From: Alphaproteobacteria bacterium
GTDB taxonomy: Bacteria; Pseudomonadota; Alphaproteobacteria; SP197
Assembly: GCA_965228895.1 (NCBI GenBank)
Contig: OZ245842.1
Location: forward strand, 3,968,001 to 4,032,000
Length of the DNA stretch: 64,000 bases
Reading direction: 5' to 3'
The first letter of the stretch is position 1; every line of letters starts with the position of its first letter. Below are positions 6,449 through 11,115 of the stretch, piece after piece. The notes below the pieces were generated by a model that had not been told where the DNA came from, did no database searches, and saw only the letters and a program-made list of their open reading frames with translations. A program made the translations under genes and the position numbers.

Positions 6449-6913
6449 TCAGCCGCCGTCGGACGTCGCCGCGTCCGTCATGCCGCCCAACCCCTTGTTC
6501 ATCATCTCTATTCGCGCCTCTTCGCCCTCGATGCCATAGCGCTCGACAATCAGCACTTCCGGCTTGGCGTAGGCGAGCCAGACCTTGCCGTCGGCGTCCT
6601 CGTAGACAACCACCTTGATCGGCAGGTCGATTCCGATCAGCGGATTCTTCGCCATCAGCGGCGTGCCAAGCGCGGGCTTGCCAAAGACCAGAACCTGGTT
6701 CGGCGCCAGGTCCATTTCGACAGACGCGGCCGCGGCGGCATGGTCGACCCGTGCGATCACGACGAACTCCTTCTCCTGAACGATGGCCTCCAGGCGATCC
6801 ATCGTCTCCTGCACCGAATGGGCGCTCGCCTTGATGATAAAGGCGTCGTTTGCCGCCGCCTGCATAGGCAAGGCAACGGCGATGAGTGCGAACAAGGCGA
6901 ACAGTCTTTTCAT
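6449..6913 (-). CDS. DUF302-domain exported protein
   Basis: Signal peptide MKRLFALFALIAVALPMQAAA; ARVDHAAAA...FGKPALGTPLM...GIDLP. Confidence 0.85.
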   Translation of the reverse strand: MKRLFALFALIAVALPMQAAANDAFIIKASAHSVQETMDRLEAIVQEKEFVVIARVDHAAAAASVEMDLAPNQVLVFGKPALGTPLMAKNPLIGIDLPIKVVVYEDADGKVWLAYAKPEVLIVERYGIEGEEARIEMMNKGLGGMTDAATSDGG

Positions 6914-7033
6914 GGCGGTCTCTCCGGTTTCGGCGCCCGGCGCACCATGCCAGATAGGCACCACGTGCCGTCAAGGACGGAACACGCGAGCGCCGGTTCA
7001 ATCGGCCGTGAAACAGGGCCGCGCAAGGCAGCG

Positions 7034-8173
7034 TTAGAGATCCTGTCTGGTTCCCAGGCCGCGATCCAAGATCGTTTCGACGGCCAGGATCATGGTCATG
7101 TAGCCCTGCCAGTCGACGTTGTCGGGATCGACATGGGTGAAACTCGACACCAGAAAGAGATCGGTGTCCGGCACGGCCGATTGGAGGTTCAGGCTCTCGG
7201 TATAGGGCACGATCTGATCGTCGAGCCCATGGACCAGGATAAGCTCGCCTGCCAGCGGTTCGACGTCATGGCGCGATGGCGAGAGCGCCGTCAGCGACGC
7301 AAGGATCGATGGCGGCAAGGCCTCAAGCAGCGCGCCGGTCTGATCGGGATCACGGTTTTCGAACAGATCCATCAATGCCAACGCGTCGGTCCCCAGATAG
7401 CCGCGCAGGTTGGAGAGGTCGACATTGGGATCCTCTGCCTTTTGCCGCGCGGCTTCCTGCAGCAGATCGCCTTCGGCCGGGTCATGCCAGCGCGCGGCGT
7501 TGGCGGCCATGAAAACCCAGCCGGCGCGCAGGTTGCCGGGACCGTACTGCCAAGTCGTCTCGCCGGTCTGACGAAACGCACCGGTGGTGAGATAGGTGAT
7601 AACGCTCTCAGCGTCGTGATAGCCGCCCAACGCGACGACGTAATCGACCTCAGCGGCAACGCGTGGATCGATCGCCGCGACAATCGCCGGTCCGGCGGCG
7701 TAGGAAACCGCCGCCATACCGACCGGTGTATCGTCGCCGGCATCGCCGGTCCGCGCCTTGATTGTCGCAATCAACCCTTCGACATCGACCTCGCTGACCA
7801 TCAGGCTGCGCGACCCCGGCAGGTCGGGCACGTGAACGGCGAAGCCGGCGCGCGCGAACGTCTTGGCGAGCGCCATCAGGCGCATATCGTCTTTGCCGGC
7901 CGGAGAAAATCCCGGCACCAGGATCAAGTGACCGCGATACCCGGCACGGTCGACATAGGTGTCAACGCCAAGGCTTTCGCCGGAAAGGGGCACGAACCCG
8001 GTCGAACGAACGGGCGCATCAGTCAAATCCTTGATCAGGCTTGCCCCGTCGGCGGCCACCATGTCCTGCAGTACCATGGCCGGCGTGGCGAAGCGCCACA
8101 GCAGAAAGCCGGCAACGATGAAACAGACAACGAGCAGCCCCAGGCCGGTGCGGATCAGAAGTCGGCGCGTCAC
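7034..8173 (-). CDS. Membrane-anchored alpha/beta-hydrolase fold protein
   Basis: N-terminal TM helix; AVSYAAG elbow-like motif, HGLDDQIVP, FTH. Confidence 0.65.
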   Translation of the reverse strand: MTRRLLIRTGLGLLVVCFIVAGFLLWRFATPAMVLQDMVAADGASLIKDLTDAPVRSTGFVPLSGESLGVDTYVDRAGYRGHLILVPGFSPAGKDDMRLMALAKTFARAGFAVHVPDLPGSRSLMVSEVDVEGLIATIKARTGDAGDDTPVGMAAVSYAAGPAIVAAIDPRVAAEVDYVVALGGYHDAESVITYLTTGAFRQTGETTWQYGPGNLRAGWVFMAANAARWHDPAEGDLLQEAARQKAEDPNVDLSNLRGYLGTDALALMDLFENRDPDQTGALLEALPPSILASLTALSPSRHDVEPLAGELILVHGLDDQIVPYTESLNLQSAVPDTDLFLVSSFTHVDPDNVDWQGYMTMILAVETILDRGLGTRQDL

Positions 8174-8379
8174 GGACGTGCTTTCTTCACCGTGGGCCGG
8201 CGGGCATGGGCGGACGGTTTGATGTTATGGCTTGCAGCATGGCCGAGGCGCCTGAACTCTCTACCGAACAGAGGGCATTAGACCCTCTGGAAGATGGCAA
8301 TCATGGGGCGATCGCGCGACCCTTCGCCGACGTCCCGACAAAGGGCGGTACGATCGTTACGCCCGTCGACGATTGCCGT

Positions 8380-9354
8380 TCAGGCCGACTTGCGGCGGTG
8401 ATCGAAATTGCGGTTGGTGAACGCCAGGATGTGGTCGAGGTAGCGGATCGGCGGGAACGCAGGCGGTCTGTCGGCGTTCTGGCAGGTCGGCAGGCAGGCG
8501 ATCTCGGCCTCGAAATCCGGATCGAAGAAGAACGGGATCGAATAGCGTTCGGCGCCGGCCAGATTGACCACCCGATGCGGCGTCGAGGGGTAGAGACCGT
8601 TGGTCCAGCGGCTCAGGATCTGGCCGATATTGACCAGAAACATGCCGGGCATAACGGGTGCCGGAAACCATTCGCCGTCGCGGCTTTGAATGTCGAGCCC
8701 GCGAACGTCGGCTTGCGCCAGATAGGTCGTGAAGCCGGCATCGGTATGCGGCCCGGTGCCGAACTCCTCACCGTCGAAGCGGTCCTGCGGCGGGTAGTGC
8801 GAAATGCGCAACGTAATGCTGGGTTCGCGGAACGATCCGCTGAAATAGTCTAGCGGCAGATCCAGTGACGCGGCGAACAGCGGCAGCATGCGGTGGCCGA
8901 GCGCCTCCATGGCGTTCATGTACTCCAGCATGGCGGGCCGAAAGCCAGGAAGCTCCGCGGGCCACTGGTTCAGACCGCGCAACGGAAGACCGGCCACGAC
9001 GGCGGGGTCGTCGGGGTCCCGGTCACGCTTCATAAAGTATGATGCCACCAGATTGGGCCGGGTTGCCGCATGCACCGTCGAGCTGCGCTGCATGCTGGTT
9101 TGCGAGGCCATGTAGCCGATGTTGTGCTCGTTGATCGTGTAGGCCTGTTTGACGTCCAGCGGCAGGGCGTGAAGCGCGCGGGTTTCGGCGAACGCGCCAT
9201 CCACGGTTTCCTGGGGCACGCCATGGCCGGCCAGAAAAAAGAACCCGACATCGATGCAGGCGGCCCTGAGTTCCCGGCCAAGACGTTCGTGAGAGGCCTC
9301 GTCGCCTGCCTTCAGCGATCCGACATCGATGACCGGTATGCCGCCGCTTTCCAT
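8380..9354 (-). CDS. Isopenicillin N synthase-family 2OG-Fe(II) oxygenase
   Basis: IPVID, GFFFLAGHG, HTD...H iron triad (GPHTDAG, STPHRV), RYS. Confidence 0.92.
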   Translation of the reverse strand: MESGGIPVIDVGSLKAGDEASHERLGRELRAACIDVGFFFLAGHGVPQETVDGAFAETRALHALPLDVKQAYTINEHNIGYMASQTSMQRSSTVHAATRPNLVASYFMKRDRDPDDPAVVAGLPLRGLNQWPAELPGFRPAMLEYMNAMEALGHRMLPLFAASLDLPLDYFSGSFREPSITLRISHYPPQDRFDGEEFGTGPHTDAGFTTYLAQADVRGLDIQSRDGEWFPAPVMPGMFLVNIGQILSRWTNGLYPSTPHRVVNLAGAERYSIPFFFDPDFEAEIACLPTCQNADRPPAFPPIRYLDHILAFTNRNFDHRRKSA

Positions 9355-9406
9355 CGTTGGCCTCGTTACCTGTGGCTGATACCCGCCATGGTAGACCAGC
9401 GGGCCC

Positions 9407-10918
9407 CTATCGGGTACCCGCGTCAAGACACGCGTCGAACGCGCCGTCGCGCAGCATCGTGGTAACCGCCTCCAGATCAACCGTCAGGCTGCGGTCCTGA
9501 TCCAGCGGCTCGACCGCCTCGCGCACGCGGTCGCGCAGCGCTTGGGCGACCGGCGCCACCCGATCCAGACGGCGCAGATCGAGGGCCTGTGCACCGACGA
9601 TCAGTTCGGCCGCCATGATCTGTTGCATAAGTTGAAGTGCCTCCGCGGCCTTGCGCACCGCGAGCGGCGTCATCGGCGCGTGATCCTCAACCGGGTAACC
9701 CATGGAATCGAGCAGGCTGGCCGGTTGCGCCTTCATCTTGACCTCCTTGGCGAGCGCCTCGGTGGTCGCCGTCATCAGCGCGAGACCGGTATGGACAATG
9801 CCGCGCTCGGTCAGCAAATCCGGCAGATCGGTGAACTCGGACTTCATCATCCGCGCGACACGTTGCGACGCCAGCGTTGCCGTCTGCGCAACCGCCAAGC
9901 CGAGAGCGTCGAAAGCGACGGCCATGGCGGGCGTGTGAAAGTTGCCGTTCGACAACACCTCTTCGTCATCGACCAGAACCAGCGGGTTATCGCCGGCGCC
10001 GTTAATCTCAACGAGCACGTTGGGCGCGCAGAAATCGATGGCCGCGCGCAAGCTGCCGTGCACGTGGCTGACACAGCGCAGGCTGATCGGATCCTGAAGC
10101 CGTCGCGGTTCGCCGTCCTCGAACAGGGTGCTGCCTGCCATCTTGTCACGCAGACTGGCCGCTGCCCGGGCTTGACCGGGAGCACCGCGCGACCGGACGA
10201 CCCGGGGATCGATGGGGCTGGGGTTGGCACGAAACGCCTCGAATGAGAGGACCGCGATGGCATCCAGAAGTTCGGCCATATGGGCGGCATCGTGAAGGAC
10301 CAACGCGCCATAACCCGCCGAAATCGAGTTGGCGCTGCACAGTGCCAAGCCTTCTTTCTCGAGCGGTTCGACCGTCTCGATACCGGCCCTTGCCATGGCG
10401 TCGGGCCCAGTCATCGTCTCGTTGGCGAACGTCGCATGGCCCTCGCCGATCAGCGGCAAGGCAAGGTTGGCGAGGAGCGGCAGGTCCGACGCGCCGAGAG
10501 AACCGACCGACGGCACCAGCGGATGAACGCCGGCGTTCAACATGGCGCACTGGGTCTCGACGATAAGCGGCCTGACGCCGGCGCCACCCTGGGCCATGCT
10601 GCTGGCGCGCGCGGCCAGCGCGGCGCGTACGACCTCGTCCGGCAGATAAGGTCCGGCGCCGCAGGCACGCGCCAGGACGACGATCCGGCTGGAACCTTGG
10701 CGCTGGTCCTCGTCAATCTCGTGGACCACCCGTCCGCCGAGGCCACGGGTCATCCCGTAAACCGGCCTGCCCTCTTCGGCAAATCGCTCGATCACCTGTC
10801 GCGAGCGGTCCATCCGCTGCCGGGCCGGCTCGCTCAGCGCCACCGTGCCGCCGCCGCGCGCAATCGCCACAATCTCGGCGATACCGATCGCCTCCAAACC
10901 CAAATGAACGTCTGCCAT
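9407..10918 (-). CDS. Histidine/aromatic amino acid lyase-family protein, MIO-less variant
   Basis: VYGMTRGLG, GSLGASDL (no ASG), KEGLAL, QDPISLRC, DNPL, NGNFH, VEDH; GGAGG RBS before ATG at 10918. Confidence 0.85.
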   Translation of the reverse strand: MADVHLGLEAIGIAEIVAIARGGGTVALSEPARQRMDRSRQVIERFAEEGRPVYGMTRGLGGRVVHEIDEDQRQGSSRIVVLARACGAGPYLPDEVVRAALAARASSMAQGGAGVRPLIVETQCAMLNAGVHPLVPSVGSLGASDLPLLANLALPLIGEGHATFANETMTGPDAMARAGIETVEPLEKEGLALCSANSISAGYGALVLHDAAHMAELLDAIAVLSFEAFRANPSPIDPRVVRSRGAPGQARAAASLRDKMAGSTLFEDGEPRRLQDPISLRCVSHVHGSLRAAIDFCAPNVLVEINGAGDNPLVLVDDEEVLSNGNFHTPAMAVAFDALGLAVAQTATLASQRVARMMKSEFTDLPDLLTERGIVHTGLALMTATTEALAKEVKMKAQPASLLDSMGYPVEDHAPMTPLAVRKAAEALQLMQQIMAAELIVGAQALDLRRLDRVAPVAQALRDRVREAVEPLDQDRSLTVDLEAVTTMLRDGAFDACLDAGTR

Positions 10919-11115
10919 CGCGCCACCTCCTCTACCGGCGGGTGAATCCGCCCCGCCACCTGCTTCTAACGGGGCGGCCGCACCGTGCCAATTGTTGGAA
11001 ATTCCTGCCGGGTGATCATGGTCACTGGCAATTCGTACGGATGTGCCAACATTTAAGGTGTTCATAAGAACAACGAGTTTCGAAGACAGCGCAAACCTCT
11101 TCGAATCAGCACTTT

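Follow-up and report, generated by a model that had tools for sequence, protein, structure and literature searches.

A lyase of the histidine ammonia-lyase fold lacking the MIO triad, and its clade-specific oxygenase partner, in an alphaproteobacterial genome

The stretch of DNA analysed here (the window) comprises 64,000 nucleotides of contig OZ245842.1, from the genome of an Alphaproteobacteria bacterium, and carries on its minus strand two adjacent genes, one encoding a protein with the fold of the aromatic amino acid lyases (P0001), the other an Fe(II)/2-oxoglutarate (2OG) oxygenase (P0002). Here, we show that P0001 has lost the Ala-Ser-Gly triad from which the electrophile 4-methylideneimidazole-5-one (MIO) is made, that it keeps the catalytic and carboxylate-binding residues of the fold, and that it falls in a clade apart from both histidine ammonia-lyase (HAL, or HutH) and ergothionase, within which the oxygenase has been passed down vertically together with the lyase, as an accessory partner specific to its clade. 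The explanation that we favour, with somewhat more belief than doubt, is that P0001 is a MIO-independent C-alpha-N lyase of the trimethylamine-lyase type, acting on a histidine-betaine derivative, and that the oxygenase has an accessory, tailoring role.

Background

That HAL-fold proteins without MIO act as lyases on ergothioneine and hercynine, with release of trimethylamine, has been recognised only recently. In the accessible text of two preprints (bioRxiv 10.64898/2026.04.22.720169; 10.1101/2025.08.13.670108), the characterised MIO-less members of PF00221 are trimethylammonia-lyases of ergothioneine, hercynine and N-pi-methyl-hercynine, namely the ergothionases (of Treponema denticola and Burkholderia, and SO_3057), the hercynine lyase Swoo_3913 and the N-pi-methyl-hercynine lyase SO_3299; these enzymes keep an imidazole-binding His and Glu, and Lys384 sets the ergothionases apart from the others.

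The gene pair

The features of the pair, by position in the window, are:

9407..10918, minus strand: P0001, MIO-less protein of the aromatic amino acid lyase fold, 503 aa (PF00221, Lyase_aromatic, 442 bits; AlphaFold2 model)
10481..10504, minus strand: loop reading GSLGASDL (residues 139-146), shorter by one residue than GSVGASGDL, which forms MIO
10757..10759, minus strand: codon of Tyr54, the inner-loop catalytic base (HAL Tyr53), placed by alignment
10667..10669, minus strand: codon of Arg84, at the position of HAL His83, the imidazole-binding and selectivity residue (alignment with 1GKJ)
10073..10096, minus strand: QDPISLRC, residues 275-282, with Gln275 and Arg281 kept and HAL Tyr280 replaced by Ile278
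9355..9406, minus strand: spacer of 52 nt with a GAGG Shine-Dalgarno site
8380..9354, minus strand: P0002, Fe(II)/2OG oxygenase, isopenicillin N synthase (IPNS)/DIOX_N type, 324 aa (PF14226 and PF03171)

The full open reading frame of the lyase spans 9407-11065 and is co-oriented with that of the oxygenase (the region 8380-11065). The ATG at 10918 was chosen as the start, for it gives 503 aa, the length of the homologues (about 503 aa), and has GGAGG some 8 nt upstream. The lyase ends with the TAG at 9407-9409, and the GAGG of the spacer lies 6 nt ahead of the oxygenase ATG at 9354. No terminator-like site was found on the minus strand between the two frames, a scan for sigma-70 promoters gave none (0.8 expected), and fused forms of at least 882 aa were looked for and not found, which is weak evidence. 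The oxygenase is translated from its own ribosome-binding site, as judged from this layout, and probably on the same transcript as the lyase.

The shortened loop

Residues 139-146 are encoded by GGT TCT CTC GGC GCG TCG GAC CTG, and in a HMMER alignment with the GSVGASGDL of Pseudomonas putida HAL they leave a one-residue gap at the MIO glycine. Among 81 family sequences, that is, the window protein and those of 80 genome loci (see below), the short loop is present in 80, the remaining sequence being partial, and a loop of MIO length in none, while the genome's own HutH does have it. Likewise, no motif of Ala-Ser-Gly length occurs among the 120 nearest database homologues, those that matched the pattern reading GSxG[AT][SA]D[LMI]. 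The whole of 8380-10918 is also covered by an independent contig of a second study (run X2), which differs by 17 substitutions and by no insertion or deletion. Since 80 of the 81 relatives and the independent contig show the same deletion, it is not an error of assembly, an explanation that had been left open in an earlier note made from the letters of the window. The same note had described the absence of the triad Gly (codons GGC GCG TCG GAC, in frame), the change of QDPYSLRC to QDPISLRC with retention of the inner-loop Tyr (VYG, residues 53-55), the lack of hutU, hutI and hutG in the window and the IPNS-type oxygenase 52 bp downstream; all of this stands, the genome's hut genes lying outside the window without exception and P0002 having both the DIOX_N and the 2OG-FeII_Oxy domain.

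Could P0001 be, nevertheless, a HutH of the ordinary kind whose sequence contains an error, or a relic without activity? All that speaks for such a reading is the protein's general resemblance to HutH (31-32% identical to P. putida HAL); the HutH scores under cut-off, the conserved deletion, the independent contig and the presence of a true HutH elsewhere in the genome leave it next to no probability, and we take the recurrence of the deletion among the relatives, together with the second contig, to refute it.

A third lineage of lyases

P0001 scores 386.1 on the hutH model TIGR01225 (cut-off 539.15) and 404.7 on the HutH model NF006871 (cut-off 524). Compared feature by feature, it shares with HutH the equivalents of Tyr53 and of Gln277, Arg283 and Asn313, and lacks the MIO triad, scores above the cut-offs, His83 and Tyr280; with the ergothionases it has in common the MIO-less HAL fold, while Lys384 is missing from the protein and a thiourocanate pathway from the genome. 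Its neutral residue (Ala384) and short loop match those MIO-less lyases in which the Lys is replaced, of which Swoo_3913 is the type.

A pattern search over one genome per species (185,579 species genomes) returned 525 stretches encoding relatives of the lyase, of which the best 80 were analysed as family loci; they come mostly from Alphaproteobacteria, and also from Betaproteobacteria, Actinomycetota and one NC10 genome. Genes in these loci, which consist of high-GC DNA, were called by the rule GC3>GC1, and the positions of lyases and oxygenases were checked by tblastn. NCBIfam has no model for ergothionases. Ergothionases were defined by context, as lyases within 10 kb of a thiourocanate hydratase scoring above its NCBIfam cut-off: such a hydratase occurs in 5 of 401 sampled genomes, and three of the four regions fetched held a lyase. 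The sample includes one unpublished genome (G415), upon which none of the conclusions depends. Context-defined ergothionases are 27% identical to P0001, have 6S7J as their best match in the Protein Data Bank, read GSIGCADI, RAHHFG and PIIKLAG, thereby keeping both the His and the Lys; one of them, compared with NCBIfam, matched general models of the ammonia-lyases for histidine, phenylalanine and tyrosine only.

The maximum-likelihood tree has 82 rows, namely the window protein, 78 loci (the partial sequences L043 and L050 were left out), the genome's own HutH and two context-defined ergothionases. The 79 family rows form one clade, with a support of 97 in the Shimodaira-Hasegawa-like approximate likelihood ratio test (SH-aLRT), apart from HutH and from the ergothionases. 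A tree of the kind that the earlier note had proposed, here with context-defined ergothionases, places the lyase with neither group, and the note's view that it is not HutH agrees with the tree, with the scores and with the true HutH found elsewhere in the genome; a grouping with canonical HutH was not seen. Judged from sequence, the clade marked by Arg84 is a third lineage, neither HutH nor ergothionase, with three hallmarks: the loop is shortened, HAL His83 is replaced by Arg, and Tyr280 gives way to Ile, Leu or Val. It is widely distributed, and in the literature open to search it was found to be uncharacterised; the databases name its members 'histidine ammonia-lyase', by automatic annotation.

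The active site

P0001 keeps Tyr54, Gln275, Arg281, Asn311, Phe327 and Glu411 (HAL Tyr53, Gln277, Arg283, Asn313, Phe329 and Glu414), and in the alignment with P. putida HAL it differs by the substitutions His83 to Arg84, Thr57 to Arg58, Asn195 to Ser195 and Tyr280 to Ile278. Arg84, Gln275 and Arg281 are invariant over the family (81/81 each), Tyr54 is found in all but one sequence, a partial one, Glu411 and Phe327 are found in 80 each, and 80 have Ile, Leu or Val at position 278. Arg58 is less constant (54/81), and the position of HAL Asn195 is mostly Ser. At HAL position 83, where all 81 have Arg, the genome's own HutH has His. The conservation of catalytic and ligand residues in 80 to 81 of the 81 sequences argues for an active enzyme and not a relic.

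The AlphaFold2 model of P0001 (predicted local distance difference test score 91.1) finds its top fold match in the ergothionase 6S7J (template-modelling score 0.93, root-mean-square deviation 2.1 A, 28% identity), with P. putida HAL (1B8F; score 0.92) a close second. T. denticola ergothionase (6S7J/6S7Q) resembles P0001 in its MIO-less HAL fold, in a loop of equal length (SIGEGDI versus SLGASDL), in the Arg at position 58, in a non-aromatic residue (Leu) at HAL Tyr280, and in the retained catalytic Tyr, Gln/Arg/Asn carboxylate site and EDH Glu; it differs in having His at HAL position 83 and Lys at 384, where P0001 has Arg84 and Ala384, and it belongs to a different clade, judging from its resemblance to the context-defined ergothionases. 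P. putida HutH shares with P0001 the fold, the length, the Tyr and the equivalents of Gln277, Arg283, Asn313, Phe329 and Glu414; unlike it, P0001 has no Ala-Ser-Gly triad, has Arg84, Ile278 and Ser195, and is not clustered with hut genes.

These comparisons bear upon a reading in which P0001 is a genuine ergothionase, converting ergothioneine into thiourocanate and trimethylamine, with the oxygenase desulfurising the thiourocanate. The fold match to 6S7J, the loop length, Arg58 and the loss of Tyr280, all common to the two proteins, speak in its favour. Conversely, Lys384, described in the accessible text of the preprints as essential for thiolate binding (10.64898/2026.04.22.720169; 10.1101/2025.08.13.670108), is Ala384 here; the T. 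denticola enzyme and the context-defined ergothionases keep both His and Lys; and 14 genomes have the lyase without the oxygenase (see below). On balance, this reading is very improbable.

The oxygenase and its inheritance with the lyase

P0002 matches DIOX_N (PF14226) and 2OG-FeII_Oxy (PF03171) with 87.5 and 86 bits, and its metal- and 2OG-binding residues, His203-x-Asp205, His260 and Arg270-x-Ser272, align with those of its nearest solved relatives, 9OVH (214 bits) and 6JYV (171 bits). The architecture and the metal/2OG residues are thus those of PaIPNS (6JYV) and of the relatives of the ethylene-forming enzyme. According to the accessible part of the source (PMC12329707), 9OVH represents an ancestor obtained by reconstruction, and for PaIPNS no function is known; neither structure suggests a substrate for P0002.

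A homologue of P0002 is found in 10 of the 80 lyase loci (tblastn, E<=1e-5), always downstream of the lyase and immediately so save in L021 (genome G016), where an insert of 1.2 kb lies between the two genes. In L036, the oxygenase (9595-10302) lacks an internal stretch of about residues 144-209, deleted in frame, and with it the HxD iron ligands; the gene seems to be on its way to being lost. At the level of the order, 33 genomes were surveyed, the source genome included. Full-length orthologues of the lyase (at least 62% identity) occur in 25 of them, with a partial one in G030, and orthologues of the oxygenase (at least 69% identity) in 11, each time co-oriented beside the lyase (11/11); in the same-genus genome G004 (500 contigs, 95% complete) neither gene was seen. 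As 14 of the 25 lyase-bearing genomes have no match to the oxygenase (E<=1e-60), the lyase does not need it. The oxygenase depends on the lyase, and not the reverse.

Within a clade of 23 rows in the lyase tree (SH-aLRT 96), the rows that have the oxygenase branch off one after another at the base, and the 12 rows that lack it are nested with L013 in a clade of support 99; on the whole tree, at least three changes are needed, e.g. a single gain and two losses. There is broad agreement between the oxygenase tree and that of the lyase, and the oxygenase subclade ends in the protein database at 66% identity, the next relatives being at 53%. From these trees, the pair looks ancestral to the order-level clade and lost later in one lineage. 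The pairing of lyase and oxygenase, which the earlier note proposed as a candidate catabolic module, holds, therefore, for one order-level clade, in which all 11 oxygenases stand beside the lyase; it does not extend to the family, with 10 of 80 loci and 11 of 25 lyase genomes having both.

It is conceivable, though quite unlikely, that the oxygenase is a syntenic neighbour of unrelated function and that the lyase works alone. The restriction of the pairing to those 10 loci, the loss of the oxygenase in 14 genomes with one further copy decaying, and the partial synteny of the neighbours further downstream are what one would then see. Such a reading has difficulty in accounting for the 11 orthologues that adjoin the lyase even in a different flanking context (L013) and across the 1.2-kb insertion, for the fall in identity from 66% to 53% outside the pairing, and for the congruence of the two trees.

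The order also contains paralogues of the oxygenase (47-51% identity) in heterogeneous contexts: a TauD-type dioxygenase with SBP5 and RidA; two arginase-family genes; a Rieske oxygenase and SoxG.

Neighbourhoods of the relatives

The family loci fall into P0001's own subgroup (53 loci, mostly with Arg58) and a deeper one (27 loci, 41-54% identity), characterised by Thr58 and by Lys at column 384. The flanks of the latter contain hutI in 7 loci, hutF in 7, hutU in 4 and hutG in 2, as well as an OpuAC-type betaine-binding protein in 5, MttB-family genes in 8 and ornithine-cyclodeaminase-family genes in 17; in L072, L075, L078 and L081, hutU, hutI, hutF and hutG, confirmed by NCBIfam, accompany transporters of the OsmF/ProW/ProV kind.

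Two contexts belong to a 13-row clade that is sister to P0001's subclade. In Pandoraea anhela (L054, 893-13719), an SBP5 ABC transporter and a porin precede the lyase, and after it come genes for an S-methyl thiourocanate hydratase (score 956.7 against a cut-off of 880), an S-methyl thiohydantoin desulfurase (494 against 450) and a 3-mercaptopyruvate sulfurtransferase; the gene content indicates a likely locus of S-methyl-ergothioneine utilisation. Its lyase, 46-47% identical to P0001, has the Arg84 and Arg58 of the clade and nearly identical core active-site columns; unlike P0001, it is followed by the hydratase and the desulfurase (NF058531 and NF058532, both over cut-off) with no oxygenase, and differs in the helix 380-388 and the loop 408-413. 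In Lichenihabitans, the lyase is fused to, or lies directly after, a cupin of PF16867 (DMSP_lyase, 104-108 bits), the cases being P0107 (720 aa) and L059, with the cupin at 7211-7966 and the lyase at 7890-9506; a dihydropyrimidinase/ErtD-like hydantoinase, a CN-hydrolase, FAD oxidases and an SBP5 protein are found in the same locus. This cupin is a second, independent association of the lyase clade with a cupin-fold metal enzyme.

Taken together, the contexts of the relatives tie the Arg84 clade to the catabolism of histidine betaines and their 2-thio derivatives, a tie that would reach P0001 itself through homology.

The Hut pathway of the source genome

The source genome has three PF00221 genes: P0001, a canonical HutH and a divergent third copy. 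The canonical HutH, at about 2.90 Mb, reads GSVGASGDL, SH and QDPYSLR, scores 666.8 (TIGR01225) and 695.3 (NF006871), and adjoins hutI and hutF; hutU lies 7.2 kb before the start of the window and hutG at 2.13 Mb. As judged from these genes, the genome has a complete Hut pathway able to consume urocanate. Its sole urocanase homologue scores 972.8 on the hutU model and 698.5 on that of thiourocanate hydratase (cut-off 930), and no thiourocanate hydratase or thiohydantoin desulfurase scores above cut-off in the genome. Neither EgtD nor EgtB passes its cut-off, and turnover of the cell's own ergothioneine was rejected on this ground. Given the absence of the thio pathway and of EgtD and EgtB, the substrate would come from outside the cell, and the product would have to reach HutU.

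Across the order, hutU is present in 32 of the 33 genomes and canonical hutH in 26. In G016 (100% complete) and G026 (97%), hutU is present along with both the lyase and the oxygenase, and a canonical hutH is absent, which fits a urocanate-producing role of the pair.

Substrate and proposed reactions

We infer that P0001 works like the known trimethylamine-lyases, because the MIO electrophile cannot form. In such a mechanism, Tyr54 would remove the beta-proton of the substrate, and a tri- or dimethylammonium group would leave C-alpha of a substrate of the histidine-betaine type to give a urocanate derivative; the oxygenase would most likely tailor the substrate or the substituted urocanate, e.g. 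by oxidative demethylation or by removal of a ring substituent, and the tailored product may then enter the Hut pathway of the genome.

Close precedents are the histidine-betaine and N-pi-methyl-histidine-betaine lyases of Shewanella, Swoo_3913 and SO_3299, which can be compared as they are described in the accessible text of the preprints. Like P0001, they are MIO-less members of PF00221 with a neutral residue for the ergothionase Lys; unlike it, they are periplasmic, keep the imidazole His, are paired with flavocytochrome urocanate reductases and serve anaerobic respiration. P0001 has no evident leader on reading its sequence, has Arg84 and has a partner that depends on O2; its neighbours are an AsmA gene and the 2OG oxygenase, the pairing with a periplasmic urocanate reductase being absent. 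With respect to the ligands described for Swoo_3913, His117 and Glu467, the Glu is kept (Glu411) and the His is changed (Arg84).

Several observations weigh against a histidine-betaine substrate. The imidazole-binding His shared by HAL, ergothionase and hercynine lyase is Arg in P0001, and Asn195 is Ser; the second Arg, Arg58, could mean a different, perhaps anionic, side chain of the substrate. None of the 53 loci of P0001's own subgroup has hutI, hutF or hutG near the lyase, and just one of them (L054) has an informative catabolic neighbour. Genes of the MttB, ornithine-cyclodeaminase and desaturase-like kinds are not specific for betaines, because the same genes flank the canonical hutH and hutU here (see below). 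In the order survey, G006 has hutU with neither lyase, which weakens the argument from the genomes without hutH, and G015 (91% complete) has the pair and no hutU. As for the partner, co-transcription is deduced from the layout of the genes, and the oxygenase is missing from the 14 genomes mentioned above and deleted internally in L036. Given the substituted imidazole His and a subgroup devoid of hut neighbours, it is a serious possibility that P0001 has another substrate.

The form that such an alternative would take is a lyase for a non-imidazole alpha-N-methylated amino acid or onium compound (an acidic, phenolic or indole betaine), whose side chain Arg84 and Arg58 would bind, with the oxygenase hydroxylating or demethylating the same scaffold. 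It would account for the Arg in place of His83 in 81 of 81 sequences, for Arg58 in 54, for the Ser that mostly replaces Asn195, for the 0/53 count, for the lack of the thio-pathway enzymes over cut-off, and for the arginase-family, TauD and Rieske/SoxG genes near the oxygenase paralogues. On the other side, Arg84 also occurs in lyases that lie within hutU-hutI-hutF and S-methyl-ergothioneine clusters, 80 of the 81 sequences retain Glu411, which in HAL is the second ligand of the imidazole, and Arg58 is found in the T. denticola ergothionase, too. We hold this alternative to be somewhat unlikely.

The suggestion of the earlier note, i.e. a lyase for a substrate with a good leaving group, possibly of histidine-betaine type, fares well as regards the top fold match (6S7J) and the relatives found in S-methyl-ergothioneine and Hut/betaine clusters, and less well as regards the change of His83 to Arg and of T. 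denticola Lys384 to Ala (both positions being regarded, in publications on ergothionase and hercynine lyase, as binding the substrate), the 27% identity to the context-defined ergothionases and the absence of hutI, hutF and hutG from the 53 loci. Within a betaine-lyase reading, a bolder and unlikely version would be an undescribed aerobic route of two enzymes, in which the Arg84 lyase strips trimethylamine from a ring-substituted hercynine (S-methylated, oxidised or N-methylated ergothioneine or hercynine from seawater) and the oxygenase removes the ring substituent, yielding plain urocanate for Hut; the Arg84 clade would then be a large betaine-lyase family with several specificities, and the removal of a ring substituent from urocanate would be a new reaction for the IPNS-type oxygenase family.

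The substrates of the Arg84 clade, once known, would correct the annotation of its members as histidine ammonia-lyases and bring to light a further source of trimethylamine or dimethylamine among the Alphaproteobacteria of the sea and of soil. They could also give a first function, in the present subclade, to the PaIPNS-like 2OG oxygenases, a group without a known natural substrate.

Other genes of the loci and of the source genome

A urocanase-family paralogue, seen at L128:8844-10637 (G007) and L129:6042-8174 (G005), is present in 12 of the 33 order genomes and scores about equally on the models of hutU, thiourocanate hydratase and S-methyl-thiourocanate hydratase (565-605 bits, under both thio cut-offs). 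In G007, a lyase that scores as HutH is encoded divergently from it. As a replacement of the oxygenase it was considered and rejected: it occurs in 9 of the 14 genomes without the oxygenase, but also in G005, where the oxygenase is present, and in two genomes without the lyase, G020 and G029, so that the two do not complement each other cleanly.

The third PF00221 paralogue of the source genome (C1, about 3387933-3389408; L093:6933-8408, minus strand; 491 aa, 196 bits) is another MIO-less variant, with GQGGAGEIL in the MIO region and YQAPVSFR for QDPxSLR, and adjoins TetR and CMD-family genes. The canonical hutH (L092, 2.892-2.908 Mb) is flanked by two MttB-family genes (non-pyrrolysine, betaine/trimethylamine methyltransferase-like), hutI and hutF, and hutU (L091, 3.950-3.968 Mb) lies beside a fatty-acid-desaturase-like gene, with an ornithine-cyclodeaminase/mu-crystallin gene close by. 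In other genomes, these partners recur with the MIO-less lyases of the deeper subgroup.

An ornithine-cyclodeaminase/mu-crystallin gene is found near the lyase in L058, L063, L065, L066, L068, L070, L072-L077 and L080-L084, and directly upstream of it in the mapped loci of the deeper subgroup; identities among these genes are 65-100% from Actinomycetota to Pseudomonadota and NC10, an unusual degree of conservation for hosts so distant.

In the window, the oxygenase is followed by a gene for a 379-aa protein (7034-8173, minus strand) with an N-terminal hydrophobic segment, which has faint alpha/beta-hydrolase matches and none to a curated family, and which also follows the oxygenase in three loci (L007, L008 and L009). 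A DUF302 protein is encoded further downstream, at 6449-6964 on the minus strand.

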